NCBI GenBank assembly: GCA_913049915.1
Contig: CAJWZC010000009.1
Span: forward strand, 386-64,385
DNA length: 64,000 bases
From: an uncultured Colwellia sp.
Lineage (GTDB): Bacteria; Pseudomonadota; Gammaproteobacteria; Enterobacterales; Alteromonadaceae
Direction: 5' to 3'
The notes under the pieces were generated by a model. That model had not been told where the DNA came from. It saw nothing but the letters and a program-made list of their open reading frames with translations, and did no database searches. Every line of letters begins with the position of its first letter. Position 1 is the stretch's first letter. The position numbers and the translations under genes were made by a program. Shown piece after piece: positions 2-62,958 of the stretch.

Positions 2-529
2 AACTATGATGTGAGATTTGAATCAGGCTTTCAATTTGTCAAAAGTGGAAAGCTCCATGGCCTAGGCCCAGCCAAACCAATAACTGGCGGTAAGGCTATG
101 CAGCCTGCAGGTTGGTCAGCGCGGGCTACCTTTAAGGAAAAAGGTAACTTAACCACCTATGTTTATCATCAAGACAAGCCTAGGGAATATGGTGCACATG
201 GCAAGGTTGTCGCGCCATTTTCGTTCAGTCATCAACGTTTTTATGCGGTAAGCTTACATGTGAAAATTAACAGTCATGCAGAAACAGCTGACGGATTTGT
301 ACACCTTTATGTTGATGGTGTACTGATTGAACGTTTAGATAATATTCGTCTTCATGCTGATAAAGAAAATGCTGCGATCAGTCAAATGCTATTTAGCACT
401 TTTCATGGTGGCAGTAGTCCAAAGTATGCGCCTAGAGATGAAAATGGTAACTATACCAGTGTATACGCTACCTTCGATAACTTTTCAGTCTATCGAAATA
501 AACGTATTCGTTTGGCACCGGGTAAATAG
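2..529 (+). CDS. Polysaccharide lyase family 14-like (alginate/glucuronan lyase) domain, 5'-truncated by window edge
   Basis: Frame is open to base 2 (NYDVRFESGFQFVKSGKLHGL). Motifs GKL(H/P)GL and MLFSTFHGGS resemble the PL14 GGKLPGL and FSTFFGG motifs. Confidence 0.65.
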   Translation, partial: NYDVRFESGFQFVKSGKLHGLGPAKPITGGKAMQPAGWSARATFKEKGNLTTYVYHQDKPREYGAHGKVVAPFSFSHQRFYAVSLHVKINSHAETADGFVHLYVDGVLIERLDNIRLHADKENAAISQMLFSTFHGGSSPKYAPRDENGNYTSVYATFDNFSVYRNKRIRLAPGK

Positions 530-694
530 CTCCTATTATATAGAAAGTTATTCGCTAAATAATTAACCGTTAACAGGCAGAAGATTGTATATGTTATTTC
601 CTTCATAGGTCTTCTATTTAAAGTAACCCTGTTAGGGTTGGATTTACGGTAAATTGACTACTTTATCAGCACTTCCAGTAGTCACTACAGTGGT

Positions 695-1687
695 CTAACT
701 TACGCCTGCAGGCTTGCCAACTATTGAATAAACAAATTCCTGAAGAGTTGGAATCCAATCTTTGTCTACTTTTTTACGATTTAATCCAAAGCCATGCCCC
801 CCTTTTCCGAGCTTAACAAAATCGAACTTGATCTTATTTTTCTTAAGCTCTTCGATATACATCTCGCTATTTTGGTAAGGGACCGATGTATCATCTGTAG
901 CAAAAACTAAAAAGGTAGGTGGCGTATTTTTAGTCACTCTAGTTTCCATAGAGTAGAACTCAATAAGTTTTGAATCATCACTTCTATCGCCTAGTAAATT
1001 GTTATGTGACCCTTTATGTTCGTAAGGTTACTTGAAAGATATCACTGGTACTCTGAGAATGGAAAAGGCTTGAACCAATTCATCCCTCTTAACACCTGGA
1101 GCAACAATTTGATCATTGGAATTATTGAGAGAAGCAATCAAATGCCCTCCTGCTGAGGCTCCTTTTACACCAACTTTTGATCTATCGATATACCAATCAT
1201 CAGCTTTTCGATGCATGGTAGCCAAAGCCATTTGAGCATCACATAATGGCACTTTGTGCGGTTCATTGACTATTCTCCCATCAGGTAACCTGTATTTCAA
1301 AACAACAACGGTAGTAAAGCCCATTTTAAAAAATAATCTTGCATAGGCTACTCCTCTATCTACACCTGTAGTAACATGTTTATACCCTCCTCCTGGTGTG
1401 TACAACAATGCAGGCCCTGCTTTGGTGACACCTTTTTTTCTATAAACAAACATAACAGGGTTCGAAACCTGACGAAAGCGCTTATTCTCTTCATCTAACA
1501 GTTCTCCCAGCTCTATCACATCCTTGTTGAAAGGAATATCCCCTGATGGCCATACCCGCAACATGTCGACCGTAAAATCCTGTGCCATTACACCTGACGT
1601 GAGGAGAATCATCAGAAATATCATCGTGGCTTTAGTCATTTTGATCATCCTATTATTTACTCCTATGTTCGTTGTATTCTTAATCAA
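695..1687 (-). pseudogene. Secreted alpha/beta-hydrolase (BD-FAE/xylan-esterase-like) broken by one in-frame TAA at 1028-1030
   Basis: ORFs 1028..1687 and 695..949 are in the same frame, joined by 26 stop-free codons (SFK*PYEHKGSHNNLLG...YSMETRV). Ser motif GASAGGHL, TPPTFL..ATDD and GGHGFG are present. Confidence 0.85.
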
Positions 1688-1791
1688 ACTCTATTTCTAG
1701 TCTTTTGGTTTTTGCCTTCAAGCTAGCAGCCTCGTTTGCATTGACAATTGTAACTAAACATATTTAAGTAACAGGGGAAGTTAAATATTAT

Positions 1792-1858
1792 GACGGGTTA
1801 CGCCTTTGGCTATCCATCCTACGGTAGGATGGGTTAGCTCGTAAGAGCGTAACCCGTC
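1792..1858. repeat. Inverted doublet of GTAG-type REP elements (REPIN-like)
   Basis: GACGGGTTACGCCTTTGGCTATCCATCCTAC followed by GTAGGATGGGTTAGCTCGTAAGAGCGTAACCCGTC. Each unit reads GTAG plus an imperfect hairpin. Confidence 0.7.
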
Positions 1859-1888
1859 GTAGTAGTAACTTTGTAGAGGTGCTGAAAC

Positions 1889-1948
1889 CGTCATGCTGAA
1901 TTTATTTCAGTATCAGCATGACAGCCGCAGCGTCTTCACGAACTTGTT
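1889..1948. repeat. Short palindromic repeat pair (GTCATGCTGAATTTATTTCAG / GTCTTCACGAACTTGTTTCGGGATC)
   Basis: Two related GTC..GAA(C/T)TT(G/A)TTTC units. The first is closed by the inverted repeat GTCATGCTG...CAGCATGAC. Confidence 0.45.
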
Positions 1949-2035
1949 TCGGGATCTCGTTGCCAGCTAATAAAGTTACTCAGCAGCTTCTTATTGAATT
2001 ATACCTATTGAATAAGAAGCTATTAACAAAGGCTC

Positions 2036-2803
2036 TTAACGAGCCATCCAGCCACCATCTACCAGCATAATGTGACCATTAACATAATCAGACGCTTTTG
2101 ATGCTAGGAACACCGCTGCACCAGCTAAGTCTTCTGGGTTACCCCATCGTCCTGCTGGTATACGGGCTGAAATTGAAGCGTTGCGCTCTGCGTCGGCGCG
2201 AAGTGCTGTGGTATTGTCGGTAGCAAAATATCCAGGAGCAATCGCATTGATTTGTAAACCTTTTGCTGCCCACTCATTGGCCAGTGCCTTGGTTAACTGC
2301 ATTACGGCACCTTTACTGGCGGCGTATGCTGGCACAGTAATACCACCGGAGAAACTAAGTAAGGATGCAATATTGACAATTTTGCCACTACCGCGTTCTA
2401 ACATATGTTTACCAAGACCGCGTGATAACCTAAACACGCCATTGATATTGGTTTCCATCACCGCATTCCAATCTTCATCGCTAAATTCCTCTGCAGGTGC
2501 ACGACGTATGGTACCGGCGTTATTGACCAAAATATCAACCTGACCAAATGCTGCAATACTATCTATTACCAACTGCTTTACCTGTTCAGCATCATCTTGC
2601 TGACAACCTAGTGCTACCGCTTTACCACCTAAGGCTTTGATTTTTACAACGGTGTCAGCAGCATTTTCTGCCTTTGAAGCAACGGCAATAATAGTGGCAC
2701 CAGCCTGAGCAAGACCTATGGCCATGCCCTGCCCTAAGCCACGACTAGCACCGGTAATAACCGCTACTTTTCCTGTTAAATCAAATAACTTATTCATATT
2801 CAT
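2036..2803 (-). CDS. kduD: 2-dehydro-3-deoxy-D-gluconate 5-dehydrogenase (SDR)
   Basis: TGASRGLG, NNAG and YAASK motifs; LLSFSGGITVPAY and GHIMLVDGGWMAR are typical of KduD; adjacent to kduI. Confidence 0.92.
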   Translation of the reverse strand: MNMNKLFDLTGKVAVITGASRGLGQGMAIGLAQAGATIIAVASKAENAADTVVKIKALGGKAVALGCQQDDAEQVKQLVIDSIAAFGQVDILVNNAGTIRRAPAEEFSDEDWNAVMETNINGVFRLSRGLGKHMLERGSGKIVNIASLLSFSGGITVPAYAASKGAVMQLTKALANEWAAKGLQINAIAPGYFATDNTTALRADAERNASISARIPAGRWGNPEDLAGAAVFLASKASDYVNGHIMLVDGGWMAR

Positions 2804-2849: not shown

Positions 2850-3680
2850 CTATTTAAGGTCACTTATCTTTAAATGATCCATATCGGTGAATTCTTGGTT
2901 CTCACCACCCATAGACCAACAAAAAGTATACGCTGAAGTACCGGCGCCACTATGAATTGACCAGCTAGGAGACAGCGCCACTTCGCCAGTTTTCATAATT
3001 AATGGGCGAATATTATCGACCTCGCCCATCATATGAAAAACCACATTGTCTTCAGGTAAGTTGTAATACATATAATATTCGCTGCGACGTCGATGAGTAT
3101 GTGGCGGCATAGTATTCCAGACACTACCCTCAGATAAACTGGTAAAGCCCATCACTATTTGACAACTTTCAACAATACCTGGACGAATAGGCTGATAAAT
3201 CACGCGTTTATTTGCCGTTTCCAACGAACCCATTTCAATCTTATTTGCCATATCTTTCGTTACCAGCTTAGTTGGGTAGCTGGTATGGGCGGGATAACTG
3301 ACGATATAAAATTTTGCTGGCTTAGTCGCATCACTACTTTCAAACGTGATCTCTTCATTACCACGTCCGATGTACAATGCATCTTCGAAGGCCAAGTTAT
3401 AGGCCGTACCATTAACGGTAATTTTGCCTGCGCCACCAATGTTTAATACGCCCACTTCACGGCGCTGAGTGAAATAATCACAGGCCAGCTCTTTATGAAT
3501 AGGCAAGGTTAGTACTTTAGTCACAGGCACTGCTGAGGCAATCACGCCACGGTCGATGTCTGAATATGTCATCGGCACTTCGTCAGCTGTGTATAAATCA
3601 TTAACCAAATAGCTTTCACGTAATTCATCACTAGTCATCCGCTTATAACGGATATTGTCTGCTGAAAATCTTAATTCCAT
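2850..3680 (-). CDS. kduI: 5-dehydro-4-deoxy-D-glucuronate isomerase
   Basis: RREVGVLNIGG, WNTMPPHTHRRRSEYY, SPSWSIHSGAGT and MGGENQEFTDMD are KduI signatures. Confidence 0.93.
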   Translation of the reverse strand: MELRFSADNIRYKRMTSDELRESYLVNDLYTADEVPMTYSDIDRGVIASAVPVTKVLTLPIHKELACDYFTQRREVGVLNIGGAGKITVNGTAYNLAFEDALYIGRGNEEITFESSDATKPAKFYIVSYPAHTSYPTKLVTKDMANKIEMGSLETANKRVIYQPIRPGIVESCQIVMGFTSLSEGSVWNTMPPHTHRRRSEYYMYYNLPEDNVVFHMMGEVDNIRPLIMKTGEVALSPSWSIHSGAGTSAYTFCWSMGGENQEFTDMDHLKISDLK

Positions 3681-3715: not shown

Positions 3716-5767
3716 CTATAAATTATCTAAATATGATTGCCATGCATTATTGTCTATTATCTCGCCAGCAGCCTGCCAAGCAAAGCCTGCGCGATATGAA
3801 AGTTTGCCTTGGGCGTCAGAATTGGTAAAAATCCAAATATGGCTTTCGTCTTTGTTTTCACTGGGTAAATGTTGAATATCGGTGATAATACTCGGCTCAA
3901 CTAAAGCCGCAGTACCAACACCTAATTGGTCAATGGTTTCCCAGGCAGAAATTCTGCCAGTGGCTTTACTGAACGAAACATTGGCATTTTCATCATGGGT
4001 GGAAACACCTATCGCAATAGGTAAAGCAGTTGGCTTACCATTTAAGCTAAAGACAGAATTCACTTGATAAAGTTGATCGCCCAGTGCTAAAGAAATTGTT
4101 TTACTCTCTGCAACAAGACCTAATGGCGTTTGCCACTCATACTCTAAGGAGAACACCACTTCGTCAACGCCACTTTTTAAAACTTTATAGCTAGAATATG
4201 TATTTGCTGCATAAGGCTTTCCTTCGATCCAAATTGCACTACCACCGGTACCTCGACTACCTCCCACGTGATAGGGATCATAACCCTCGCCTTTATTTTT
4301 GTGATAAGAAATACCATTTAAGTGCGCTGCATACCATTTATCAATAATTGCATAATCGACTTTCTTAAACCAGTTGTCGACACCACTAAAACTGCCTTCT
4401 TTTGGGCCTGCAGGGCCATAAACACGGAAGGCAACCTTATCGTTTTCCCAAGTAAAATCATCATCTCGCTCAGGAACAAAGCGACCATAAGCCATCACTT
4501 TCTTTTCAGGTGTTTCCCACTTACTCATTTCTGAGGCGGCAAGTAATAGCGCACCTACACCGTATAACTGCGTATCATTTATCGCTACCGGATCCGGTGA
4601 TTTACCAATCTGTTGTACCCAATGCAACATGCCATCGGAGTCAACCGATGAAGCAAGTGCCGCCCAACCTTTTTTAACCGCGTCGACAGTCCCTTGATCA
4701 GTAATGACACCGTTGTTAACGCCCCATGCCAAACCAAAGGTAATAAAAGCTGTACCACTAGTCTCAGGGGTTTTAACCTTATCGGCATCCATCAAAGATG
4801 CAGGCCAAAAACCATTGGGGTTTTGAACTTTAACTAGGGCTTTTGCCATTTTTGTATAAAGTGCTAAATATTTCTTTTTAGATTTATGCCCTGCTGGAAT
4901 TTCTTCAATAATTAATGGTAGCGCGGCGAACACCCAACCATTACCACGACTCCAAAACACATGGCTGCCGTTGTCACTTTTCTTGGTAAAGTAGCGGCTA
5001 TCACGGAAGAACAGGTCGTAATCGTCAGAAAACAAATAATCAACCGTGGCCCAGTATTCTTTGTTAGCGTAGTCAAAGTATTTTTGATCACCAGTCGCCG
5101 TACTTAGCTGCATCCAAGTGCGCGGTGCCATAAACAAAGCGTCTGCCCAACACCATCGGTCTTGACAGGTACCTTCAAAGCCTTTTTCTTTACTTTTAAA
5201 AAATTCCAAACTATTAGTAGGTTTATTTGCAAGAATATTATCAAAGCTTGTTTGAATATTTTTATAGGTCGCTTTATTATCAGTTTTTTCATTTAACCAA
5301 AGGTACATTTGACCAATGGTATGATCATCGCCATGCACTGGACGATGGCCTAATTGATAGTCGCTATTTTTAGCAATTTGTGACATCACCTCAACTAAAT
5401 TTTGATCTTCAACCGTATCTGCCCAGCGAGACAAGCCTATATATAAAGCCCCTTGGATCCACTCTTTTGGATCAGCAATCTGTTTAATTCTTTTTTGGTC
5501 AGGAATATAATCAAAATTTTCAAGACGTGCTACTTGCCATTCAGTGGCGCGTATACCCACATCTATTGCCGATTGTCTAATAGCGGATGCGTTAACTGTA
5601 TTATCAACGGCGTTAACTACGCGCTCTGTTGTAGATTGTTCCGTTGCTGTTTGGCTAACTTGAGTAGTTTGGCTTAGAGTCGCGTCATCAGAACAAGCAA
5701 AAATTAGCGAGGATAATCCTGCAATTAAACTGACTTTTGTTAGCTTGTATTTTGTACTTTTATGCAT
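3716..5767 (-). CDS. Lipoprotein: GH105 unsaturated glucuronyl hydrolase fused to C-terminal DUF4861-like domain
   Basis: Lipobox LIFAC; GH105/GH88-clan motifs WCWADALFMAP, FWSRGNGWV, ETSGTA, WVQQIG; C-terminal FVPERDDDFTWENDKVAFRVYGP. Confidence 0.82.
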   Translation of the reverse strand: MHKSTKYKLTKVSLIAGLSSLIFACSDDATLSQTTQVSQTATEQSTTERVVNAVDNTVNASAIRQSAIDVGIRATEWQVARLENFDYIPDQKRIKQIADPKEWIQGALYIGLSRWADTVEDQNLVEVMSQIAKNSDYQLGHRPVHGDDHTIGQMYLWLNEKTDNKATYKNIQTSFDNILANKPTNSLEFFKSKEKGFEGTCQDRWCWADALFMAPRTWMQLSTATGDQKYFDYANKEYWATVDYLFSDDYDLFFRDSRYFTKKSDNGSHVFWSRGNGWVFAALPLIIEEIPAGHKSKKKYLALYTKMAKALVKVQNPNGFWPASLMDADKVKTPETSGTAFITFGLAWGVNNGVITDQGTVDAVKKGWAALASSVDSDGMLHWVQQIGKSPDPVAINDTQLYGVGALLLAASEMSKWETPEKKVMAYGRFVPERDDDFTWENDKVAFRVYGPAGPKEGSFSGVDNWFKKVDYAIIDKWYAAHLNGISYHKNKGEGYDPYHVGGSRGTGGSAIWIEGKPYAANTYSSYKVLKSGVDEVVFSLEYEWQTPLGLVAESKTISLALGDQLYQVNSVFSLNGKPTALPIAIGVSTHDENANVSFSKATGRISAWETIDQLGVGTAALVEPSIITDIQHLPSENKDESHIWIFTNSDAQGKLSYRAGFAWQAAGEIIDNNAWQSYLDNL

Positions 5768-5844: not shown

Positions 5845-5906
5845 TGGTACAGGAACTCAACAATTGGTCTGTCCAATAATAATTGGTAATTACTATGTGT
5901 GTCAAG
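5845..5906 (-). promoter_or_regulatory. Promoter/operator module copy A (operator 5862-5877; -35 TTGACA at 5905-5900; -10 TATTAT)
   Basis: AATTGGTCTGTCCAAT ends 24 nt from GTCAA, the same spacing as five other copies; lies upstream of the GH105-kduI-kduD run. Confidence 0.8.
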
Positions 5907-6790: not shown

Positions 6791-8326
6791 TTATAAATCC
6801 TGAACTGTTACTGTGCCGCTAGATGTCCATTTAATCAGTAATTGCTGCCACTCTGTTACGTCCCAGTTGTAATCTTCCCCTAAATCGATTGCCTCACGAA
6901 TAAGGGTAACAGATTTCGACAGTTGTCTGGGTTGCATATTATTATAGGCTATGGCTTTCAAATAATGAAATTGTGGGTTTTCATCCTGGCTTTCGGCTAT
7001 TTGTTCTAAATACTTCATTGCTCCATTGACGTCATGCAAAGATTGATCTTTTGCCAGAAGCTTTAATTCTGCCACTTTGCGGATCGCTGCGAGATGTTTT
7101 TTCTCTGCTGCTGAATTTAACCAGAATAGGGCTTTTTCTTCATCATGAATAACCCAGGGACTATCAAGCAAAATCCTGCCTAAGCGATATTCCGCCTGAG
7201 AAAGCCCCTCTTTACTCGCTCTAGCGATCCAGTATATGGCTTGCTGTAGGTCTTTTTGCTCACGATAGAGTTTTAAACCATACTCAAACTGGGCTTCGCT
7301 ATGACCTTCCTGAGCGGCATTTTTTAGTAGACTATCTACTTGACCTACTTTCGGTTTTAGCCAGGTGAAATTCATTAAAATCTGTGCATATTGATACTTG
7401 TCTTGTGGGGTGTTGCTTGTTTTTAGCTTGTTGACCAAGCGGCGGACTTTTCTATATAAGACCCCATAATCACGACGTATTCTGAAAATGTCATAGTTGG
7501 CTATGCCTAGGAAAGTACGGTTAACAAAATGAATATTTTCGCCCTTAAATTTAGGCTGTGGCAAAGTAGATAAAGACAGCTCGTATAACCCCTTGTTAAT
7601 TACGCCCATGGTTTGTCTTGGCACAAAATCTCTGCGTGAGCCGTCAGGAGCAATATCATAATCGACAACTAAAAAATAAGGTTTATTAAATAACGCATCA
7701 TTGGTGGTTATATAAACTGATGAGTACGATTGTAAACTGTCGCCACCAAATTCATCTTCACCTCCAAAATTATCATCCATGCTGTTTTCTAAAGACGAGA
7801 ATTGGCTGTCAAAATCATCAATATCGTCATCAAAGCTGCTGTGTTTTCCAGAAAGTTCACTTTCGTCGCCAAAATGCACCTCAGTGGTCAAGTTATCTTT
7901 TTTTAATACTGGAAAATATTTTGCATTAATACTGGCTTGACCGTATTGTTTTTGAAATTTATCAATATAGGATTGCACCAACACTTTTTGATCTTGGGGT
8001 ATGCCAGCCATCAAAAATTCTACAATTTCAACTGAATTATCATAATGATACTCTGCCGCCAAGGAGAACCAAACAAGGGCTGTTACCTTATTGATCTCAG
8101 TGCCTAGACCTTGGTGATGAATAGCCCCCAGTTGATAATAAGCTCTAGGGTTGCCGATTTCTGCTGCCGCTTGATATTCGGTTCGAGCTTTAAGGTAATT
8201 TTTTTGTAGAAAGCTTTGGTCGGCTACAAATATAGTATTGGCAAAGGCAACTACTTGAGTACTGTGACTCAGTAAAAACAGGCTAATAACTAATCCAAAC
8301 CGATTCACAATAGATTGACGCTTCAT
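6791..8326 (-). CDS. Secreted Sel1-like repeat protein
   Basis: Signal peptide; repeated AYYQLG/AQFEYG/AEYRLG-..A..W..AA Sel1 units; acidic linker. Confidence 0.8.
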   Translation of the reverse strand: MKRQSIVNRFGLVISLFLLSHSTQVVAFANTIFVADQSFLQKNYLKARTEYQAAAEIGNPRAYYQLGAIHHQGLGTEINKVTALVWFSLAAEYHYDNSVEIVEFLMAGIPQDQKVLVQSYIDKFQKQYGQASINAKYFPVLKKDNLTTEVHFGDESELSGKHSSFDDDIDDFDSQFSSLENSMDDNFGGEDEFGGDSLQSYSSVYITTNDALFNKPYFLVVDYDIAPDGSRRDFVPRQTMGVINKGLYELSLSTLPQPKFKGENIHFVNRTFLGIANYDIFRIRRDYGVLYRKVRRLVNKLKTSNTPQDKYQYAQILMNFTWLKPKVGQVDSLLKNAAQEGHSEAQFEYGLKLYREQKDLQQAIYWIARASKEGLSQAEYRLGRILLDSPWVIHDEEKALFWLNSAAEKKHLAAIRKVAELKLLAKDQSLHDVNGAMKYLEQIAESQDENPQFHYLKAIAYNNMQPRQLSKSVTLIREAIDLGEDYNWDVTEWQQLLIKWTSSGTVTVQDL

Positions 8327-8377
8327 ATTTTAACTCTCACTGAGTGGGAAATAACTGTATCAAGTTAGTAACATAAA

Positions 8378-26046: not shown

Positions 26047-26082
26047 AGTTAATCATTCAGTTAATCATTCAGTTAATCATTC
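26047..26082. repeat. 12-bp tandem repeat x3 (AGTTAATCATTC) overlapping a sulfatase stop codon
   Basis: AGTTAATCATTC AGTTAATCATTC AGTTAATCATTC. Confidence 0.85.
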
Positions 26083-27494: not shown

Positions 27495-27569
27495 TGGTAT
27501 AGCCACCCTGTCAACCAATCCACGAATTGGTCTGTCCAATACTACTGGCAACATATCATACAAGTCAAG
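27495..27569 (-). promoter_or_regulatory. Promoter/operator module copy B (operator 27525-27540; TTGACT-N18-TAGTAT)
   Basis: AATTGGTCTGTCCAAT 24 nt from GTCAA (27564); secondary TGGTATAGCCA at 27495. Confidence 0.8.
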
Positions 27570-54380: not shown

Positions 54381-55982
54381 TTAGAAGGGTTCTTCTAAAT
54401 GGACAATGCCTGACTCAACCGTTTTCCACCAAGCATCATATTGCGCAATTAGCTCGGCGAGTTTTTCAGGATGGCTTGATGCCAGATTATTGGTCTCGGT
54501 TCGATCTTTACTCAGGTCATATAACTCCCACTGACCGGTAGCAAAGCTCCAAAGTTGATCGTTATTTTGTTTTTTCTTAGATTCATGCACCACCAATTTC
54601 CAGTTGCCGTCAACCACTGATTTACCACTGGCCCACTGATTAAAAACAGGAATTTCGCGTTGCACCGTGCCATTTTTAAAGGCTGACAATAGGCTCATGC
54701 CATCAAGCGTACCCACTTTTTCGCCCTGAAATACTTTCGGATAACTTGCGCCTGTGATATCGATAAAGGTCGCCAGAATATCAACAAGATGTGATGATGT
54801 TTGATTAACCGGCCCACCTGATTTGACTACACCGGGCCAATTGACGATGAATGGGGTAGCAACACCACCTTCAAAACTATCAGTTTTATAGGCTTTAAAT
54901 GGCACATTCGAAACATTAGCCCAATGGCCACCAATGGAAGACCAACGGTCAATAGCGCCAATCTCGCCGTCGCCTATATCGAGCGCTTGAGCCGAAGCAC
55001 CATTGTCGGATAAAAAGATGATTAGGGTATTATCAACTTCACCAGTATCTTTGAGATGAGCCAATACACGACCAACATTCTGGTCGAGATTATCAATCAT
55101 CGCACCATAGACTTGCATCACACGAATTTGATCTTTTCTTTCTTTATCACCCAGATCATTCCATGATTGAAACATTGCCTTTGAACGTTTATGAGTGTCC
55201 TTGCTGATGATACCTAGCTCAAGTTGGCGCTCATAGCGCGCTTTGGCGATGGCTTCATAACCAACATCATAAACGCCTTCGTATTTGGCAATGTCTTTTG
55301 GCCATGCCTGAATAGGATCATGTGGTGCTGTGTAAGACAAATACATAAAAAATGGTTGTTCATCATCTGACTTTTCGTGACGTTCAAGTAATTCTATGGT
55401 CCAATCGGTAAAAGTATCGGTGCTATAATAGGTTTTCTTTGGCGGTGTGAAAGGTTGTACACATTTGGTATCAAAGCAAAAATGCCGAATATTTTGTCTT
55501 TTGTGGGCAGGAAAAGCTTCACCATCACGCTGATAACCGGGGTTAAAATGATTTGCCGCTCCGTCGCGCATCCCCCAATAATGGTCAAAACCCATGTCGT
55601 ATGGGTTATCGGATGAATGGTGCTTGCCGACCATTAGCGTTTTATAACCAACACTTTGCAGTAGCTCACCAAAAGTGACACTGTTTTGATAACTACCACG
55701 ACTGGCACCCATGCCGACCTTTTGTGGAAATTGTCCTGTCATTAAGGAAGCGCGAGTAGTATTACATTTTGAGGTATTGCGAAACTGATTAAAGCGCATG
55801 CCTTCTTTTGCGAGATTATCAAGGTTAGGGGTTTTCACCTCGCTACCATAAGTACCGATATCGGAAAAACCCATATCGTCAACCATGATGAGCAAGATAT
55901 TAGGATTTTTGGCTTGATCGGCAACAGCAGATAATGATGCCATAATCAACCCGATTGATAAAATTAGTGTTTTCAAGGGCAT
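54381..55982 (-). CDS. S1 arylsulfatase (AtsA-like)
   Basis: MVDDMGFSD, variant motif CNTTRASL, GKHH, YTAPHDP, SDNGA, EGG..TPFIVNWP. Confidence 0.88.
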   Translation of the reverse strand: MPLKTLILSIGLIMASLSAVADQAKNPNILLIMVDDMGFSDIGTYGSEVKTPNLDNLAKEGMRFNQFRNTSKCNTTRASLMTGQFPQKVGMGASRGSYQNSVTFGELLQSVGYKTLMVGKHHSSDNPYDMGFDHYWGMRDGAANHFNPGYQRDGEAFPAHKRQNIRHFCFDTKCVQPFTPPKKTYYSTDTFTDWTIELLERHEKSDDEQPFFMYLSYTAPHDPIQAWPKDIAKYEGVYDVGYEAIAKARYERQLELGIISKDTHKRSKAMFQSWNDLGDKERKDQIRVMQVYGAMIDNLDQNVGRVLAHLKDTGEVDNTLIIFLSDNGASAQALDIGDGEIGAIDRWSSIGGHWANVSNVPFKAYKTDSFEGGVATPFIVNWPGVVKSGGPVNQTSSHLVDILATFIDITGASYPKVFQGEKVGTLDGMSLLSAFKNGTVQREIPVFNQWASGKSVVDGNWKLVVHESKKKQNNDQLWSFATGQWELYDLSKDRTETNNLASSHPEKLAELIAQYDAWWKTVESGIVHLEEPF

Positions 55983-56142: not shown

Positions 56143-56205
56143 TGGTATAGCCACCTCATTAATTGGCCTGTCCAATATTACTCGTAACATATCATATATG
56201 TCAAG
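56143..56205 (-). promoter_or_regulatory. Promoter/operator module copy D (operator 56161-56176; TTGACA-N18-TAATAT)
   Basis: AATTGGCCTGTCCAAT 24 nt from GTCAA (56200); TGGTATAGCCA at 56143. Confidence 0.8.
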
Positions 56206-56564: not shown

Positions 56565-59273
56565 TTAGAACTCAATATCAATATAAGCTTTATGGCTGCC
56601 ACCATTATACTCCTTGGTAAGCATATAGAAGAAAATGCCTGTTTCATCGGCCTCCATAATCGCTAAGCTGAGGGTACCATCACCATCGACTTCACCTTGA
56701 ACCAAAGCGGTTATATCAAGGGTTCGCCAGCCATAATCGGCGTCAGCCACAGTAAATGAGCCTGCTGAACTAGCCAAATCTGGCAGTTCATCCCAAGTAA
56801 GTCCGTTTTCTGTCCAGTTATCGTGGTCAATCGGCTTTATTTTCTGTTTAACACTATCACCATTTTTGGTATAGCCATAGACGTTAAGGGTCGCTGAGGT
56901 AATGGTTGCACTATTGGCCGCACTGACATCAAACTTCATGACAATAATTCTATCGGAGTCTGCATCGCCGCTGCCCTCTTTACTTTTGATGGTATCATCT
57001 GTGCCATAATCGGTAGTGGCAGAGCCTTCACCTCTTTGAACATAAGTGTCAGCAGTTACATTTGCAGTGTAACTTGGTACCTCACTTGAACTTGCATAGC
57101 ACAGTGCATCCCAGCCATAAAAGTAACCCGCCGCAAAACAGGCACTTTCATCACCATGATAATCACTTTCATTATCATCAACTGGGGCTGCTAGTATTAT
57201 TTCAAGGTAAGGGTTTTCGTCGCTAAAGTCGGACGTTTTTATCTGTTGGGCTACATCTAGACCATTAGTTTGGCTGAACGCTAGACTTAAGATGCCGTCG
57301 CCGTCGATTTGGGTTTGCACATAAGCGGTAATATCTACTGTCTGCTTTTGATAATCATCGCTGTTATTGGTGGTCATTGAGCCGATACTATCACCAATTT
57401 CGAGATTATCATTCCAGTTTACTTCATGCTGATCCCAGCCATCAGCGCTTACTGCACCGATATCGGTTGTGATAGTGGTGTTGTTACTGTTTTTGGTGAA
57501 TACATGGAGAATAGCGCTGCTAATGTTGGCATCAATGGCGCTAACATCAAACCTCATATAACCAACCTTGTCCTTAGTACTACTATTTTTAACCTTTATC
57601 TTAGTAACTGATCCGAAATATTTATCCGGCTTACCGCTGTCAACATAGGTTTCGGCTACTGGAAACCTGATAATAGGTAGCGTAGGTTTAGGGAGTAAAT
57701 CAGTGGGGCCAACGTCCGCTACCGTTAACGGCTTATTAATACTAGCGGTTGTCGTGTACTCAGCAGCACCCACATCATGAATTGAATCGCGTGATAAACC
57801 ATGTATGTCAATATTGGCTAAGCTGTAGTTAGTGTTAACCGCATTAACTACGGCACTAGAAACAGTAGGGACAAACACACCATCAACATCAGCGGATAAA
57901 CCTGGATTAATTTCATCGATTTGTGCAGCAGTAATGGTTCTACCGAGTACGGCTAATTCATTGCTTATGGAAGTGGAAGAACCATAAGCAATATTACCAA
58001 TAAAAGTAATGCTAGGCTCAATATCCAAGTACTTTGGGTCATCATCAAACAATGCAGTGCTGCCGGCATAATAAATAGCGTTGTTAGCGATAATTGAATT
58101 TATAGGCGCATTAATATGTTGAAACGGGTCACTACCTACCTGCCCAATAACCAGCGAAGGTTTTGAGTTAACAATAGTATTGTTGTAAATTTCTAAATCT
58201 TCGGCACTTCTATATTCGCTGCCATTGCCGCCAGTGCCAGCATATATAGTAATACCCGCTTTTTTAGTGTTTTTAATGTGATTGTTATAAACTTTATGTC
58301 CATTACCAATAATACGAATACCGCCAGTGCCATTAATGCCACCACCATCAATAAAATTACCATAGACTTGGTTATCATCACCATTACGTAAGGTAATAGA
58401 ACCTTGATTATCAAGGAATGTATTGTACCTAAAGATGTTGCTGTCAGATTTACTAGAAATAATCTCAGCTTCTCCGTCTATTTTATAAAATAGATTGTAT
58501 TCCGCAATGGTATTGGAATCAGTTCCTGCCTCGGCACCACTGCCTATCTTAAGGCCTTCTTGTCCGTTTGCACGATCTGGGTAATTGACAGAAATACGCG
58601 TATCGAAGTAATTATGATGAAAATGATGATTATCCTCAAAATTAGGGTAGTTAGCATCAGTCGAGTCGCGACGATTAACTATCACCATAACGCCACTCAT
58701 CTGCATATTGGTAAAATGATTATGGTCTATTTCATTATGAGAGCCACGCACATTAACCCAGTGGTACCTAACCTCTGAATCTTGGCTGTTGAAACCATCA
58801 ATAGTGGTATTTGTTAAGCGACTGTGATTCGCAAAAGTGCTGGTATCTGTAGAGTCATCATAAAAACGAATGATCCCGCGACCATCAGCTCTTTCACCAT
58901 TTTGAAAATGCAAACCATCGACGATTAAATAATCACCCGCAATTTTTAAGCCTGAATTTCCTTCCAGAGAAACACCACCTTTGCTTTGGGCTTGCAACAG
59001 TATCGGCGAACTTGCCGTGCCATCGACATTAAACAATATTTCTAAGTTAGTATAGGTACCATCTTTAATGACGACGGTATCTCCTGGGACAGATGCTGCA
59101 ATCGCATCTTCAATTTCTGTTGGTGACCCTGCGGTTCTGACCGTAGCAAAAACACTTCCTGCCAGGCTGATGCTTAATAGTACCACCACTGTTTTACATA
59201 AACGGCTTCTCAAACGCATTGTTAAATCAACCAAAGTTAACTTCTTTATATTTTGTAATAACTTTAAATGCAT
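56565..59273 (-). CDS. Secreted PL6 lyase with two C-terminal CBM96/DNRLRE-like modules
   Basis: EGLKIGSG, EIISSKS...GSITLRNG; two A(E/D)TYV...(Y/V)M(R/K)FDVS...SA.L.V modules. Confidence 0.78.
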   Translation of the reverse strand: MHLKLLQNIKKLTLVDLTMRLRSRLCKTVVVLLSISLAGSVFATVRTAGSPTEIEDAIAASVPGDTVVIKDGTYTNLEILFNVDGTASSPILLQAQSKGGVSLEGNSGLKIAGDYLIVDGLHFQNGERADGRGIIRFYDDSTDTSTFANHSRLTNTTIDGFNSQDSEVRYHWVNVRGSHNEIDHNHFTNMQMSGVMVIVNRRDSTDANYPNFEDNHHFHHNYFDTRISVNYPDRANGQEGLKIGSGAEAGTDSNTIAEYNLFYKIDGEAEIISSKSDSNIFRYNTFLDNQGSITLRNGDDNQVYGNFIDGGGINGTGGIRIIGNGHKVYNNHIKNTKKAGITIYAGTGGNGSEYRSAEDLEIYNNTIVNSKPSLVIGQVGSDPFQHINAPINSIIANNAIYYAGSTALFDDDPKYLDIEPSITFIGNIAYGSSTSISNELAVLGRTITAAQIDEINPGLSADVDGVFVPTVSSAVVNAVNTNYSLANIDIHGLSRDSIHDVGAAEYTTTASINKPLTVADVGPTDLLPKPTLPIIRFPVAETYVDSGKPDKYFGSVTKIKVKNSSTKDKVGYMRFDVSAIDANISSAILHVFTKNSNNTTITTDIGAVSADGWDQHEVNWNDNLEIGDSIGSMTTNNSDDYQKQTVDITAYVQTQIDGDGILSLAFSQTNGLDVAQQIKTSDFSDENPYLEIILAAPVDDNESDYHGDESACFAAGYFYGWDALCYASSSEVPSYTANVTADTYVQRGEGSATTDYGTDDTIKSKEGSGDADSDRIIVMKFDVSAANSATITSATLNVYGYTKNGDSVKQKIKPIDHDNWTENGLTWDELPDLASSAGSFTVADADYGWRTLDITALVQGEVDGDGTLSLAIMEADETGIFFYMLTKEYNGGSHKAYIDIEF

Positions 59274-59435: not shown

Positions 59436-59455
59436 ATGATGTATAAAATGCAAAT

Positions 59456-59517
59456 TGGTATGCCCCCTTAAAAATTGGACGGACCAATAATACCAAGCAC
59501 ACATTATATATGTCAAT
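59456..59517 (-). promoter_or_regulatory. Promoter/operator module copy E (operator 59473-59488; TTGACA-N18-TATTAT)
   Basis: AATTGGACGGACCAAT 24 nt from GTCAA (59512). Confidence 0.8.
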
Positions 59518-59621
59518 ATGTGTTCAATAAAAACTCAATAAATGTTTAGAATTCAATCTGCAGTGTATTTGAAGAAACACCACGAATCTTAACATGTGAA
59601 TACTATCAATAACTTACAGTA

Positions 59622-60735: not shown

Positions 60736-61136
60736 AACTTTTTAAAACTTAAAACCACAAACAATATTAATTGGTCAAATATGAATGTATTAACAGTTCG
60801 AAATATAAGGAATAAATTCAGATGGCCTCAGCTAAATTTGTGTGGTTTTATTCGAAGAATAAACGATATATGACGAGTATGAAGATAAATAATACTCTCG
60901 CTCAGTACATTTTAATTCAAGAAGTCAAGCTAAAAATAAAAAATCACCTACTGTTGATAAACCAGTTCTGAATATGGTTTTTATTTGCTTCTATTCTTGT
61001 TTATTTAAATAGATTTATCGGCATAGAGTCATTATTAGAGAGAAGTGGTCTTATCTTCTTAGTTTTCTTTATTGGTTAACCTAATTATACAGTGTAGGTG
61101 TTTTTCGCTCATCCGCTTTTGGTTACGCACATAAAA

Positions 61137-61170
61137 AAACTCCCCAACATATTGCTATGCTGGGGAGTTT
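61137..61170 (-). terminator. Rho-independent terminator, paralog of 56420-56453
   Basis: AAACTCCCCA...TGGGGAGTTT. Confidence 0.8.
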
Positions 61171-61211
61171 TATTAAATTAAGAGCTCTACTGTCGGCACT
61201 GTCTCTATTGG

Positions 61212-62744
61212 TTAGTTGCTACAAGATTCTGGAGCAGCGGTTGTTTGTTCCAATGGCATGTAAGATTCATTGGGGAATGAGCTAGCGACTTTATATTGAT
61301 TAGGATAATCTGTATAACCGACACATTCTGATGATGTATCACCTTGACAACCACCCCTTATATATAAGTATTCGGTATAACCAAATCCAGGACCACCACC
61401 ATTACCGTATCCCTCTTTATACATTTTTTTCACTGCTTTAAAAGGCGTTATTTCTACACCGCCATTGTATTGATTCAAAAGGATCCAGCGTGCCATTTTT
61501 TTAGTGTCTGTATCACAATCTCCGGTGCCATTTACAAACTCATGGATCAGACCATCAGCTTCATACATAACCGTGGAAAAGGTGTAGCTTATTTTCTCAA
61601 GAAGGTCTTCATCAATAAATTGGCTCGACTCGTTTGAATGATAACCCATTGAATATAGCTTAACTATTGCCTGAACATCTATTCCACCATGACCTGCATC
61701 TTCCCATTTACTTGAATAAACAGGTTCAGCATAATGCCACTTTATTTTTGAACCATTGACTCTTTTTTCGTCATCTCAAGATTCCAACAAGTTACCGATT
61801 AACTCTTCATAGAAGCCCTTGCGATTATTATATTCATCTTCGTCAACTATCGCTAACGCCTTTAACGTATTAGCCATGACAACTGCAGCTGCAAAACCGC
61901 GGTTAAAGGCTATTTCTTCACCCCGTTTTTTATCTGCACTGCTGAACAATTCATCAAGATCTTCAAAACTACCTTTATCTGGGTATCTAAATAACCAACC
62001 TTCATCGTAGTAATCCATCGTGCTTGAATCAATTCTTTTGCCATTTGAGACCCATCTTTTCTTAATATCGTTATCTTGTGGGCCCAATGATTTTGAATCT
62101 AACAGAACAAAATCATCTAAAGTAATGAGTACATTTCCAATCCACCCCTTGGCAACATCCGCGTAGGTTTGGGTGGTTGAGCCACAAATAGTTTGATTGC
62201 CTAACGTTGGATGGGACAGAATATAATTAGCGGCCTCAGCAATAGGCTCAACAATCATCATTGTTTGCACCAAATTTGCCACATAAACCGTTGACCCGTT
62301 AGCTGTCGTTTCTTCGGCCCAAGCATTTAGGGCTTGCCCTTGTATGTAGTCGTTTTGTGCTCCACTAGAGCGAGACGTTTCTGACCGTGAAAAGATAAAG
62401 TCTGCGTGATGCTTAAACTCTTCCATAAAGCCAACGCTTGTTGAATTATTACAAGATTGTCCGGTCATGCGGTGCATATTGAGCAGACCTCTCATCAAGT
62501 AGCTACCACTCCATGCCCACTTGCCCTTCCTATTGTCTGACCACTTTTTGTTAGTTAACTGATATATGCCATTGTCTTCCTTGTATGTGTCATACCAACT
62601 ACTGTAAGTATCGATCTCATCCTGAGTAATTTTTGTTCCTAAACTCAGACCCGTATTCGGCCCGTAAAGACTTGCTGCACAGATACTATAGCTTGTTGCT
62701 AATGTTAATGAAGCGGTTAATAAATACTTTGCTACTTTGTTCAT
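61212..62744 (-). pseudogene. Secreted hypothetical protein (probable alpha/alpha-barrel) interrupted by one in-frame TGA at 61776-61778
   Basis: ORFs 61776..62744 and 61212..61649 share a frame, joined by 42 stop-free codons (LLES*DDEKRV...WEDAGHGGIDV...YSMGY); signal peptide; WAWSGSYLMRGLLNMHRMTG. Confidence 0.78.
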
Positions 62745-62803
62745 CTTGTCACCTCTTGTTATAGTTTTTTATTTTTTTATTTTAGTTATCCTTTTTTTTT
62801 GTT

Positions 62804-62874
62804 GTTACTTTTATTTCTTCCTCTTAAGCATAAAATCTCTATTTATACTCGTCATCATTCAGGCGAATTAGCGC
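62804..62874 (-). promoter_or_regulatory. Conserved 71-nt 5' leader, copy 2
   Basis: 69/71 identical to 59365-59435. Confidence 0.75.
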
Positions 62875-62895
62875 TAAGCTATATAAAACTCTACT

Positions 62896-62958
62896 TGGTA
62901 TATCCGTCTTAATAATTGGCCCGTCCAATTATTAAGATAACATATCATAAATGTCAAT
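62896..62958 (-). promoter_or_regulatory. Promoter/operator module copy F (operator 62914-62929)
   Basis: AATTGGCCCGTCCAAT 24 nt from GTCAA (62953). Confidence 0.78.

Follow-up and report, generated by a model that had tools for sequence, protein, structure and literature searches.

The window, a 64,000-nucleotide stretch of DNA from an uncultured marine member of the Alteromonadaceae, encodes seven S1 sulfatases and ten sequence-confirmed lyases (six PL6, two PL38-like, one PL14 and one PL25), together with three lyase-like proteins, two GH88/105 hydrolases, a GH2-esterase fusion, KduI, KduD, and a GntR/FCD regulator (coordinates are those of the window, with + or − for the strand). Its left edge is a contig break past which the locus continues on the next contig, C11, with an eighth sulfatase, a TonB-dependent receptor, a second GntR protein, a TRAP transporter, and UxaC, UxuA, UxuB and KdgK. 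On the right the locus truly ends near 62.9 kb, with IS and HipA debris beyond that point. Eight of the 16 sulfatases in the genome and all six of its PL6 genes fall within 1.8% of its length (P about 1e-10). A preliminary description, confirmed overall in what it observed and supported in part in its interpretation, had called the locus a PUL of about 60 kb. The gene content that it saw is real, but the locus is larger, running into C11, and has no SusC/SusD pair; its sole TonB receptor lies just outside the window on C11. The window very probably makes up most of one TonB-receptor-dependent hexuronate regulon; the locus is not a Sus-type PUL. The host was recovered from Tara Oceans pelagic metagenomes, and identical contigs were found again in several independent metagenome assemblies. 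This pelagic origin, where Ulva-derived ulvan is no obvious substrate, speaks against an ulvan-type target.

Sulfatases, lyases and accessory enzymes

Pfam confirms the seven sulfatases described before, and with the eighth they are interspersed among the lyases. Sulfatase 1 (8444..9937, −; CGPSR motif) is S1_7-like: its best structure match is P18_S1_7, an ulvan sulfatase (6hhm, E 1.8e-52), with iduronate-2-sulfatase also matched (E 5e-40). Sulfatase 8, on C11, resembles S1_8; both subfamilies act on ulvan fragments (PMC8360166). The others are sulfatase 2 (10148..12178, +), with a C-terminal HEAT-repeat domain, sulfatase 3 (12273..13778, +), sulfatase 4 (26073..27422, −), sulfatase 5 (38281..39957, −; CGPSR), sulfatase 6 (49496..50908, −), and the arylsulfatase-like sulfatase 7 (54381..55982, −). 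The last, presumably an S1_4 member, carries the unusual motif C-N-T-T-R and has 68-73% orthologs in three related loci. C-x-P/A-x-R is present in seven of the eight, and an FGE is encoded in the genome.

Where 11-13 lyase or lyase-like domains of at least five fold types had been counted, we find 10-13 (ten confirmed by sequence plus three lyase-like) and four folds, namely beta-helix, alpha/alpha barrel, jelly-roll and propeller; a fifth is unproven. The window opens within the C-terminal part of a PL14 lyase (2..529, +; PF21294, E 9e-23), whose full gene encodes a 319-aa lipoprotein and starts upstream of the window, directly downstream of the eighth sulfatase. The PL25 ulvan-lyase homolog (19476..20924, −; BNR_4) matches ulvan lyase 5uam (E 2.4e-117) and keeps all four catalytic residues (His, His, Tyr, Arg) in the alignment. 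All six PL6 proteins match the Chondroitinase_B/PL6 Pfam family and retain their Ca ligands as well as both catalytic residues, Lys and Arg. Three are Tat-exported (PL6a, 23142..24515; PL6b, 24635..26005; PL6c, 29955..31310; all −), and a compact cluster of another organism has a PL6 with 76% identity to PL6c. PL6d (41425..43785, −) is a two-domain protein of the AlyGC type (5gkd, E 4.7e-242), followed by PL6e (47813..49339, −) and by PL6f (56565..59273, −), which carries two CBM96 modules; the founding CBM96 module binds alginate (PMC9971899). Both PL38-like genes belong to PF05426; lyase a (36967..38235, −; E 9e-78) is assigned to PL38 via its paralog b (40115..41410, −; 3nfv, E 1.6e-53; BoPL38 8bdq, E 5.6e-36). 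For PL6d (AlyGC), CBM96 and PL38, the closest relatives that have been characterised act on alginate, a further point against an ulvan-type target.

The lyase-like proteins comprise a DUF1961/YesU-like protein (22277..23152, −), whose gene overlaps the end of PL6a, and two candidates. A beta-helix protein that also has PKD/Ig domains and ends in a GlyGly-CTERM-like tail (15161..17545, +) weakly matches the model for hyaluronan endo-lyases of the BT3328 family (E 3e-15, short of the cut-off), has 40-42% homologs in related loci, and is a candidate surface endo-lyase. A 470-aa lipoprotein (46343..47755, −), predicted to form a 7-bladed propeller (pLDDT 89), is a candidate PL22-like oligo-uronide lyase, the best fold match of its model being oligogalacturonate lyase 3pe7 (PL22; E 1e-15, TM 0.59/0.72).

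Both genes first described as GH105 have PF07470 (GH88/GH105) and encode unsaturated uronyl hydrolases that are lipoproteins, one fused to DUF4861 (3716..5767, −) and one not (20979..22187, −). The reported GH2 (51021..54296, −) is of the beta-glucuronidase type, matching gut beta-glucuronidases 6d1p (E 1.3e-173) and 6d7j, and is a lipoprotein with a C-terminal esterase (5ao9, E 7e-59). KduD (2-dehydro-3-deoxy-D-gluconate 5-dehydrogenase; 2036..2803, −; TIGR01832, 353 bits vs cut-off 338.85) and KduI (5-dehydro-4-deoxy-D-glucuronate isomerase; 2850..3680, −; NF002091, 387 bits vs cut-off 250) are genuine NCBIfam equivalogs, as had been supposed. A KdgF-like cupin (36215..36517, −; Cupin_2) completes the uronate genes of the window, and those of C11 encode UxaC, UxuA, a mannitol-dehydrogenase-family reductase and a PfkB kinase.

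Further exported proteins include, by Pfam, a secreted Sel1-repeat protein (6791..8326, −) and a secreted NHL-repeat beta-propeller (14098..15144, +), as well as two lipoproteins, one with Ig-like domains, LRRs and a C-terminal domain (27767..29848, −), the other with three bacterial Ig-like domains and a C-terminal half (31837..34395, +). A 721-aa secreted protein of no Pfam family (43880..46045, −) has a model that combines a PHP-like metal-hydrolase barrel with two beta-sandwiches, one of them mutarotase-like; its 81% homolog adjoins a giant PL8 and a sulfatase. In-frame stops break three genes, which we count against the best explanation given below: an alpha/beta-hydrolase esterase (BD-FAE/Abhydrolase_3; 695..1687, −), intact (314 aa) in another assembly; a Zn-dependent alcohol dehydrogenase (35130..36158, −), whose split at the TAA at 35709-35711 recurs in three metagenome assemblies; and a secreted protein of no known family (61212..62744, −; TGA at 61776-61778).

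Operator and operon layout

The 3.8-Mb genome contains six copies of a 15-nt operator, ATTGGNCNGNCCAAT, where 0.19 would be expected. Five copies lie in promoters of the window and one upstream of the TonB receptor, with none outside locus promoters, which therefore points to one regulon. With up to two mismatches the genome has 16 sites, 11 of them in contigs C9 or C11, including the GntR2/TRAP and kdgK/uxaC intergenic regions. The operator is found at 5863..5877 (ATTGGTCTGTCCAAT, within a conserved promoter), 27526..27540 (ATTGGTCTGTCCAAT), 56162..56176 (ATTGGCCTGTCCAAT), 59474..59488 (ATTGGACGGACCAAT) and 62915..62929 (ATTGGCCCGTCCAAT, in the outermost promoter of the regulon), with two copies at 31480..31539 in the divergent PL6c/Ig852 promoter region. 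Eight look-alike promoters combine the operator with a -35 TTGACA and a TATACCA element, the operator ATTGGACAGACCAAT overlapping the -10 region. In the 1.8 Mb of DNA compared, the motif appears once in the locus of a sister MAG and nowhere else.

The window does encode a single GntR/FCD regulator (18638..19357, −), as described before; the locus, however, has two, the other on C11, and both resemble ExuR/UxuR, not FadR, the window's regulator being closest to ExuR/UxuR. We infer that these two ExuR/UxuR-like GntR repressors probably bind ATTGGACAGACCAAT. The first ends an operon in the order Sulf4-PL6b-PL6a-DUF1961-GH105-PL25-GntR1, in which adjacent genes lie no more than 119 nt apart and PL25 would be co-transcribed with GH105 and the Tat-exported PL6a and PL6b.

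Relatives of the locus

Counterparts of nine window genes (KduD, KduI, GH105, DUF4861, Sel1, Sulf1, Sulf2, Sulf5 and PL25) are found in the ulvan plasmid pAlt76 at 35-62% identity, at least 35% over most of their length. Identities are 61% for KduD, 53% for KduI, 54% for Sulf1, 51% and 62% for the GH88/GH105-DUF4861 fusion (to pAlt76 genes), and 37.5% over 485 aa for the Sel1-repeat protein (to a SEL1-like protein); the KdgF-like cupin reaches 41% over 64 aa. The second GH88/GH105 is 50% identical to the hydrolase beside PL25 in pAlt76, where the PL25-GH105 pair has the same arrangement. In contrast, the PL6, PL38, PL14, DUF1961, PL22-like and PHP-like genes of the window lack a pAlt76 counterpart. 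As to the synteny proposed earlier as a check, no characterised locus was seen to be near-completely syntenic, and pAlt76 shares only these nine genes. Rhamnose catabolism is encoded elsewhere in the genome, with RhaI 74% and RhaD-ADH 75% identical to pAlt76 and a kinase and RhaM present. Against an ulvan type, this cluster (C13/C120) lacks the locus operator, and alpha-L-rhamnosidase, xylosidase and PL24 were not found with pAlt76 queries. Also in line with the preliminary description, GH78, GH43, PL8 and fucosidase were not found with the queries used, and the locus has no hexosaminidase.

Fusions in other organisms tie together parts without a pAlt76 counterpart: sulfatase::PL14 in two organisms, DUF1961 to PL25 (L056) and DUF1961 to PL6 (P0202). 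Another gammaproteobacterium has the order TBDT-Sulf8::PL14-Sulf7-PL6-DUF1961::PL25, a Persicobacter plasmid places a PL38-like gene about 4 kb from PL25, and sulfatases flank the Tat-PL6 clade in Verrucomicrobiota. Soil Bacteroidota carry a GH2-esterase/PL38/PL6 triad without sulfatases, which we count against the best explanation; part of the set may thus act on an unsulfated polyuronate. In congeners, AlyGC-type PL6 genes sit in small alginate loci, and PL6d is 54% identical to one of these.

Substrate and proposed pathway

A sulfated GlcA/IdoA-type target other than plain alginate, as first proposed, is borne out. The uronate chemistry is indicated by the KduI/KduD equivalogs, the beta-glucuronidase-like GH2 and the C11 uronate genes, and sulfation by the interspersed sulfatases, the FGE, the sulfatase::PL14 fusions and the Verrucomicrobiota Tat-PL6 neighbors. 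PL25 and PL6 probably belong together, given their common operon, the recurring order, the DUF1961 fusions and the Persicobacter proximity. The likeliest target would be an ulvan-type sulfated rhamno-glucuronan of the GlcA/IdoA kind, with rhamnose-3-sulfate-uronate repeats and glucuronan-like stretches, an assignment that we hold at barely an even chance; PL25, the PL25-GH105 arrangement, the nine pAlt76 matches, the Sulf1/Sulf8 likeness and the genomic rhamnose genes argue for it. The preliminary description had set textbook ulvan aside. That pAlt76 queries found no rhamnosidase and that only nine window genes match pAlt76 bear this out, but ulvan was dismissed too quickly, because PL25 is bona fide with four catalytic residues, Sulf1 is S1_7-like, and the genome encodes rhamnose catabolism.

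An unlikely alternative is a mosaic in which PL25, GH105, sulfatases and KduI/KduD form an ulvan-type module and PL6d, PL6f-CBM96, PL38, PL14 and KdgF one for alginate, regulated in common only since both release uronate-derived inducers. The AlyGC match of PL6d, the definition of CBM96 as alginate-binding, the alginate lyase BoPL38, the cupin adjoining PL38a and the alginate loci of congeners fit such a mosaic. However, four sulfatases are interspersed among the supposed alginate genes, and sulfatases are found fused to PL14. PL25 lies in one operon with PL6a and PL6b, and another lineage again shows both the PL6-DUF1961-PL25 order and the fusions. Moreover, the genome lacks a PL17/PL15-type (Hepar_II_III) domain (PL7 was not detected either, with an uninformative PL7 control), KduI is encoded rather than a dedicated DEH reductase, and PL6d shares merely 54% identity with the congener's enzyme. 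It is improbable that the target is an animal-type glycosaminoglycan resembling dermatan or chondroitin sulfate, e.g., from zooplankton or tunicates, with PL6 in the role of chondroitinase B, GH88 taking off the unsaturated uronate and an iduronate-2-sulfatase-like enzyme among the sulfatases. The Chondroitinase_B family matches, the iduronate-2-sulfatase match of Sulf1, the weak hyaluronan endo-lyase match of the beta-helix protein and the PL8 and sulfatase neighbors of the 721-aa homolog would agree with this, yet alginate lyases match the PL6 genes far better than chondroitinase B does (e.g., 1.9e-34 vs 9.5e-17). PL8, hexosaminidase and amino-sugar catabolism genes are absent from the locus, the GH88/105 genes share 50% identity with those of an ulvan plasmid, and PL25, whose characterised members are to our knowledge all ulvan-active, is present.

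A decaying, horizontally acquired remnant with a pathway no longer working is highly improbable. The three broken genes, the transposase, HipA and AAA fragments at 59.3-61.2 kb and past 63 kb, and the lack of PL25, Tat-PL6 and the 721-aa protein in the 24-36 congeners examined would suit it; against it, some 35 of the 38 genes are unbroken and keep their signal peptides and catalytic residues, conservation extends to promoters and operators, identical contigs recur across assemblies, and one assembly has an intact esterase.

We envisage surface first cuts or polymer binding by the beta-helix protein, PL6f-CBM96 and the Ig/LRR lipoproteins, and fragment uptake via the TonB receptor. Periplasmic cleavage would fall to PL25, the three Tat-exported PL6, PL6d, PL6e, PL14 and the two PL38-like lyases, with sulfate removed by the eight sulfatases and acyl groups by the two esterases. 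The PL22-like propeller, the two GH88/105 hydrolases and the GH2 would finish the oligosaccharides. Unsaturated uronate would then pass through the TRAP transporter to KdgF, KduI and KduD, yielding KDG, and free GlcA through UxaC, UxuB and UxuA, both routes ending at KdgK. The full account of one regulon, this pathway and an ulvan-type substrate is about as likely to be right as wrong. Judged by sequence, the island of about 75 kb matches known ulvan-degrading loci in part and is for the most part an enzyme set without a characterised counterpart; under one regulator, it very likely acts as a single regulon with which this organism would digest a sulfated glucuronic/iduronic-acid polysaccharide.

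Enzyme content and extent of the locus

Pfam scans of all large ORFs bore out the gene inventory of the preliminary description. The window encodes seven sulfatases, a PL14 lyase, six Chondroitinase_B/PL6 proteins, of which one bears two CBM96 modules, two PF05426 proteins that match the PL38 structures 3nfv and 8bdq, a BNR_4 protein of family PL25 (E 2.4e-117 to the ulvan lyase 5uam), and two PF07470 (GH88/GH105) proteins, one of which is joined to DUF4861. For the PL38-like lyase at 40115-41410, a putative PL38 member by sequence match, E-values were 1.6e-53 to 3nfv and 5.6e-36 to BoPL38 (8bdq). Also present are a GH2-esterase fusion, whose GH2 part matches the gut Bacteroides β-glucuronidases 6d1p and 6d7j (E 1e-173), a KdgF-like cupin, one GntR/FCD regulator (GntR1, 18638-19357), and KduI and KduD, each scoring above its NCBIfam equivalog cut-off, with the window SDR as the KduD equivalog. 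NCBIfam offered no family name for PL38, PL14, DUF1961 or the propeller protein described below. Half of the 16 sulfatases of the genome and all six PL6 proteins fall within 1.8% of it (P ~1e-10).

Every enzyme carries a Sec, lipoprotein or Tat export signal, and the N-termini of PL6a, PL6b and PL6c read I-N-R-R-K/Q-F-L; we refer to these three as Tat-PL6. The Ca2+ ligands and catalytic Lys/Arg residues of PL6 (N212, E244, E246, K251 and R272 in the numbering of the two-domain, AlyGC-type PL6d) are invariant in all six paralogs. In PL25, the residues at chain positions H99, H119, Y164 and R180 of 5uam are identical; allowing for a 24-residue offset, we take these to be the catalytic H123, H143, Y188 and R204 of the 2017 structure paper. 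Counting the eighth sulfatase discussed below, seven of eight sulfatases contain a C-x-P/A-x-R motif, and a gene for the sulfatase-maturing enzyme FGE is located on another contig (C46). The remaining sulfatase, Sulf7 (54381-55982), has an odd C-N-T-T-R motif; among the sulfatases of the core cluster that recurs in other organisms it is nevertheless the most strongly conserved, with 68-73% identical orthologs in three other loci.

Two proteins stand outside named families. A 470-aa lipoprotein (46343-47755) without a Pfam or NCBIfam match has over 1,000 family members, which show 50-80% conservation between phyla and invariant His residues and some of which carry Tat signals. Its structural model, a propeller (pLDDT 89), best matches the PL22 oligogalacturonate lyase 3pe7 (E 1e-15, TM 0.59/0.72, 13% identity), which makes it a candidate periplasmic oligo-uronide lyase. 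A 721-aa protein (43880-46045) likewise matches no Pfam family; its relatives number more than 470 and are hypothetical proteins from Planctomycetota, Verrucomicrobiota and Bacteroidota. Its model (pLDDT 88) combines a mutarotase-like sandwich, a PHP-like metal-hydrolase barrel (3e38) with family-wide invariant HxH, E-F-H, H and D residues, and a C-terminal sandwich, and it shows a weak match to CehA/McbA metallohydrolases. Homologs adjoin either PL8 and a sulfatase or GH92 and GH38; no close relative was found in the genome-contig search, nor among 60 relatives.

The left end of the window's contig (C9, 65.3 kb, of which the window covers positions 386-64385) is an assembly break, and the locus carries on into a second contig, C11, which we placed using flanks from a longer metagenome contig and BLAST against the genome. 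There, an eighth sulfatase (Sulf8) lies directly upstream of PL14. C11 also encodes a TonB-dependent receptor of 959 aa, another regulator of the GntR/FCD type (GntR2) and a DctPQM TRAP transporter. Further along, C11 encodes pentose-phosphate genes, then LarB/C/E and a nickel-dependent putative hexonate epimerase, and finally a mannitol-dehydrogenase-family reductase (UxuB-like), a PfkB kinase (KdgK-like), UxaC and UxuA. LarB/C/E and the epimerase, which matches NF052594 with 616 bits against a cut-off of 500, are encoded at 18-23 kb of C11; weaker operator-like sites are found close to them, and together these genes may provide a route for a C5-epimeric, iduronate-derived hexonate. The single regulator and window-wide extent proposed earlier thus describe only the part of the locus that carries GntR1. 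No SusD-like domain was detected in any ORF of the window and the first 30 kb of C11, where the sole receptor is a plain Plug and β-barrel TonB-dependent type; we therefore dropped a Sus-type polysaccharide utilization locus (PUL) with a susC/susD pair.

To the right of ~62.9 kb, only transposase, AAA and HipA fragments occur. Degraded DDE_3 and IS3-type transposase fragments at 59273-61212 and 63000-64000 flank the final two promoter cassettes on the right side of the island, and fragments of HipA and AAA_13 lie past them. The assembly comprises 178 contigs (3.8 Mb, 99.97% complete) and lacks a 16S rRNA gene; one housekeeping protein belongs to a 90%-identity cluster labelled as an Alteromonadaceae bacterium, from which the taxon is taken. 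GC content is 38-44%, and identical contigs recur in Tara Oceans and other marine metagenome assemblies. The locus is presumably chromosomal. Members of a REP-like palindrome family, TAATTAGGGTCAGAACAAAGTTA, dot the intergenic regions of the window (8374-8427, 17534-17564, 18492-18520, 19431-19456, 27684-27741, 46284-46341 and 49413-49443), and a gap at 17.6-18.5 kb contains no large ORF. Single in-frame stops interrupt an esterase (695-1687), a Zn-dependent alcohol dehydrogenase (TAA, 35709-35711) and a secreted protein (TGA, 61776-61778); the esterase is whole in another metagenome assembly, and the remaining two genes are interrupted in every assembly examined.

A shared operator and the history of the regulon

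Six copies of a 70-nt promoter block emerged from a repeat search. Its core, the 15-nt operator ATTGGNCNGNCCAAT, has exactly six copies genome-wide against 0.19 expected. Five of these lie in the window, at 5863, 27526, 56162, 59474 and 62915, and one upstream of the TonB receptor gene on C11, with near-copies at 31480 and 31525. When two or fewer mismatches are allowed, 11 of 16 sites lie in C9 or C11, including the GntR2/TRAP and kdgK/uxaC intergenic regions. Eight promoters aligned in gene orientation have in common a -35 element TTGACA, the operator ~23 nt downstream over the likely -10, and also an element TATACCA. Behind the site at 27526 follows a tight minus-strand run, Sulf4-PL6b-PL6a-DUF1961-GH88/105-PL25-GntR1, with gaps of at most 119 nt, and PL25 would therefore be co-transcribed with PL6 genes. 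This arrangement argues against two independent loci, a division of the window that we rejected since the operator is common to both parts and PL25 sits inside a PL6 operon.

GntR1 and GntR2 both find their best matches in ExuR (134 and 156 bits against an equivalog cut-off of 396). The FadR label initially given to the window's regulator was accordingly withdrawn, as the best matches of both proteins are ExuR/UxuR; the two would act in an ExuR/UxuR-like manner, but fall outside these families at equivalog level. The enterobacterial ExuR/UxuR regulon, with its KduI/KduD side branch, likewise combines GntR/FCD repressors, a TTGG...CCAA palindromic operator and uxaC, uxuA, uxuB, kduI and kduD. 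It differs in that the operator variant described here is private to the locus and a sister MAG, and in that the regulon has grown to ~40 secreted polysaccharide-degrading genes.

That sister MAG, Alteromonadaceae bacterium DT_4, retains a common backbone of KduD (98% identity), KduI (95%), GntR2 (88%), GntR1 (81%) and the TRAP transporter, together with one operator copy. Its cargo is smaller and partly different, consisting of a β-helix-CBM96 protein, two sulfatases, an 86% homolog of the 721-aa protein and another TonB-dependent receptor. None of PL25, the Tat-PL6 clade or the 721-aa protein was found in 24-36 same-genus genomes, where PL6 is of the AlyGC type only and confined to small alginate loci. 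From the shared backbone, the differing cargo and the absence from congeners, the locus resembles a plastic zone whose base, a hexuronate regulon, was inherited vertically, and by these comparisons the region appears to be a hot spot for exchange of polysaccharide-degrading genes. Within the window, two divergently transcribed lipoprotein genes (27767-29848 and 31837-34395) contain Ig-like repeats that form inverted repeats of 73-82% DNA identity (29205-29757/31913-32687), a likeness that suggests recent duplication or gene conversion.

Comparison with characterized polysaccharide loci

We compared the locus gene by gene with the ulvan plasmid pAlt76 of Alteromonas sp. 76-1 (PMC6431674). Alteromonas ulvan loci are likewise gammaproteobacterial, TonB-receptor based and devoid of SusD, and they have in common with this locus a PL25-GH88/105 pair, S1 sulfatases, a Sel1-repeat protein, DUF4861, a cupin, TRAP and KduI/KduD at 35-66% identity. 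Identities to the pAlt76 counterparts are 61% for KduD, 53% for KduI, 50-51% for the two GH88/105 proteins, 62% for DUF4861, 37.5% for the Sel1 protein, 54%, 35% and 38% for Sulf1, Sulf2 and Sulf5, 43% for PL25 and 48-66% for the TRAP subunits. The GH88/105 gene directly upstream of PL25 (20979-22187) is 50% identical to the gene beside PL25 on pAlt76. The plasmid and the locus thus have this adjacency in common.

Unlike the Alteromonas loci, the locus described here lacks PL24, GH78, GH43 and in-locus rhamnose genes, and its regulators are GntR rather than DeoR proteins. Conversely, pAlt76 has no match for the six PL6, two PL38-like, PL14, DUF1961, 470-aa, 721-aa and β-helix (794 aa, 15161-17545) proteins or the Ig/LRR lipoproteins, and its counterpart of the GH2-esterase is limited to a 30% GH2 match. 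tblastn with four pAlt76 GH78 queries returned no α-L-rhamnosidase match in the whole genome, nor did the GH43 and PL24-like genes of the plasmid as queries. Rhamnose catabolism is encoded away from the locus and without its operator on two further contigs (C13 and C120), with RhaI (74% to pAlt76), RhaD-ADH (75%), a rhamnulokinase-like FGGY kinase (44%) and RhaM (44%) beside PntAB, as on the plasmid. The C13 cluster (44-57 kb) comprises DeoR, aldolase, oxidase, RhaI, RhaD-ADH, kinase and PntAB genes and probably joins C120, which carries RhaM, a FucI-like gene, a PfkB kinase, an SDR, and esterases of the GDSL and SASA types; PntAB followed by RhaM is also the order on pAlt76.

In the published summary of the Formosa agariphila ulvan PUL, lyase attack is followed by GH88/GH105 action, S1_7- and S1_8-type sulfatases take part, and uptake via a TonB-dependent transporter precedes periplasmic finishing (PMC8360166). 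All these features have parallels here, those of the sulfatases being putative. As summarized there, that system differs in being a Bacteroidota SusC/D locus with PL28 and PL40 lyases and several rhamnosidases/xylosidases, and the summary reports no PL6, PL14 or PL38 (PMC8360166). Sulfatase subfamilies acting on ulvan fragments are S1_7, S1_8 and S1_25 (PMC8360166); the best solved relatives in our set are the ulvan-active sulfatase 6hhm for Sulf1 and the S1_8 enzyme S1_8A for Sulf8.

Alginate systems, represented by the AlyGC-type PL6 5gkd and the Bacteroides ovatus PL6/PL17/PL38 locus with BoPL38, resemble the locus in their PL6, PL38 and PL14 families, CBM96 module, KdgF-like cupin, GntR regulator and TonB receptor. 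However, alginate is unsulfated, whereas eight sulfatases are embedded here, and KduI with the UxaC/UxuA route points to GlcA/IdoA. An AlyGC-like PL6 is present, yet it is not accompanied by the PL7/PL17/PL15 and DEH reductase set of a sulfatase-free alginate locus; no Hepar_II_III domain was found, and PL7 was not detected in a search that was also silent in control genomes. Dermatan sulfate degradation by chondroitinase B (PL6, 1dbg) offers a PL6 fold, Ca-dependent Lys/Arg machinery and a sulfated substrate, but similarity to 1dbg is weak (E 1e-17 to 3e-29) and the locus lacks an amino-sugar pathway. Neither a Lyase_8 domain nor hexosaminidase or amino-sugar genes, as expected of a chondroitin/dermatan sulfate locus, occur in the window and the C11 part. 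Literature on PL6 with sulfated substrates yielded alginate and glycosaminoglycan work only, plus the unrelated β-helix fucoglucuronomannan lyase FdlA.

A recurring gene core and the likely substrate

We followed the Tat-PL6 clade through metagenomes and through a set of genomes with one per species; percentages below are identities to the proteins of the present locus. One compact cluster, from a different organism, consists of a TonB-dependent receptor (66%), a sulfatase::PL14 fusion (58%, 52%), a 472-aa homolog of the 470-aa protein (31%), a Sulf7 ortholog (68%) and Tat-PL6 (76%). An uncultured gammaproteobacterium combines a receptor, sulfatase::PL14, Sulf7 (~70%), PL6 (69%) and a DUF1961::PL25 fusion (58%), and DUF1961::PL6 fusions were also found. 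In marine Verrucomicrobiota (Pelagisphaera, Opitutales MAGs), PL14 adjoins PL6 in the company of sulfatases, and one marine verrucomicrobial MAG also encodes a 36% homolog of the 721-aa protein. We take the conserved core, which recurs in Gammaproteobacteria and marine Verrucomicrobiota, to comprise a TonB receptor, an S1_8-like sulfatase (PL14-fused elsewhere), an arylsulfatase-like sulfatase, Tat-PL6, DUF1961 (PL6- or PL25-fused elsewhere) and the PL22-like propeller. On a Persicobacter plasmid, PL25 (50%) and a PL38-like gene lie ~4 kb apart, in the neighborhood of sulfatases and UxuA. Soil Bacteroidota (Mucilaginibacter, Chitinophaga and others) possess a triad of GH2-esterase, PL38 and PL6 that lacks sulfatases, has 33-50% identity to the window proteins and often comes with KduI/KduD. 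This triad may be a module for acetylated polyglucuronate, and its sulfatase-free form suggests a polyglucuronate-type core chemistry to which desulfation was added in marine versions.

A sulfated GlcA/IdoA polymer is the very likely substrate, judging from the chemistry of KduI/KduD, the β-glucuronidase and UxaC/UxuA, from the sulfatases embedded in the locus or fused in other organisms, and from the single operator. The preliminary description had arrived at the same chemistry and at the lack of a syntenic characterized locus; its dismissal of ulvan was too quick in view of the intact PL25 and its GH105 partner. These two genes, the ulvan-like sulfatases, the rhamnose catabolism and the recurrent linkage of PL25 with PL6, PL14 and DUF1961 lead us to favor an ulvan-type polymer, whose glucuronan-like stretches would be the substrate for PL38 and PL14. 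The main rival is a mosaic for ulvan plus alginate, since the nearest characterized relatives of PL6d, CBM96 and PL38 are alginate-active; the location of PL25 within a PL6 operon speaks against such a composite. Those alginate-acting relatives, together with the pelagic habitat and the lack of any rhamnosidase or xylosidase match to the pAlt76 queries, nevertheless count against the ulvan type as well, and the substrate may therefore be an uncharacterized planktonic polymer instead of Ulva ulvan. A bolder proposal, which we advance tentatively and consider somewhat unlikely, is that a sulfated rhamno-glucuronan or iduronan of pelagic origin, distinct from Ulva ulvan, is the target of the conserved core, which would then be an enzyme system so far unrecognized. 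The Tat-PL6 clade and PL14 would in that case have new specificities for sulfated GlcA/IdoA linkages, and DUF1961 and the 721-aa PHP-like metalloenzyme would each represent a new family of carbohydrate-active enzymes.

Algal sulfated acidic polysaccharides form a large, slowly degraded ocean carbon pool, and to our knowledge their degrading enzymes are known for few macroalgal polymers only. The 15-nt private operator could be used to mark out the regulon and to screen for its inducer. By way of common promoters and operons, and of gene fusions known from other organisms, the locus ties an ulvan-lyase module to PL6, PL14 and PL38, families so far known for unsulfated polyuronates, and it presents Tat-PL6, the sulfatase-linked PL14, DUF1961, the PL22-like propeller and the PHP-like protein as candidates for new specificities.
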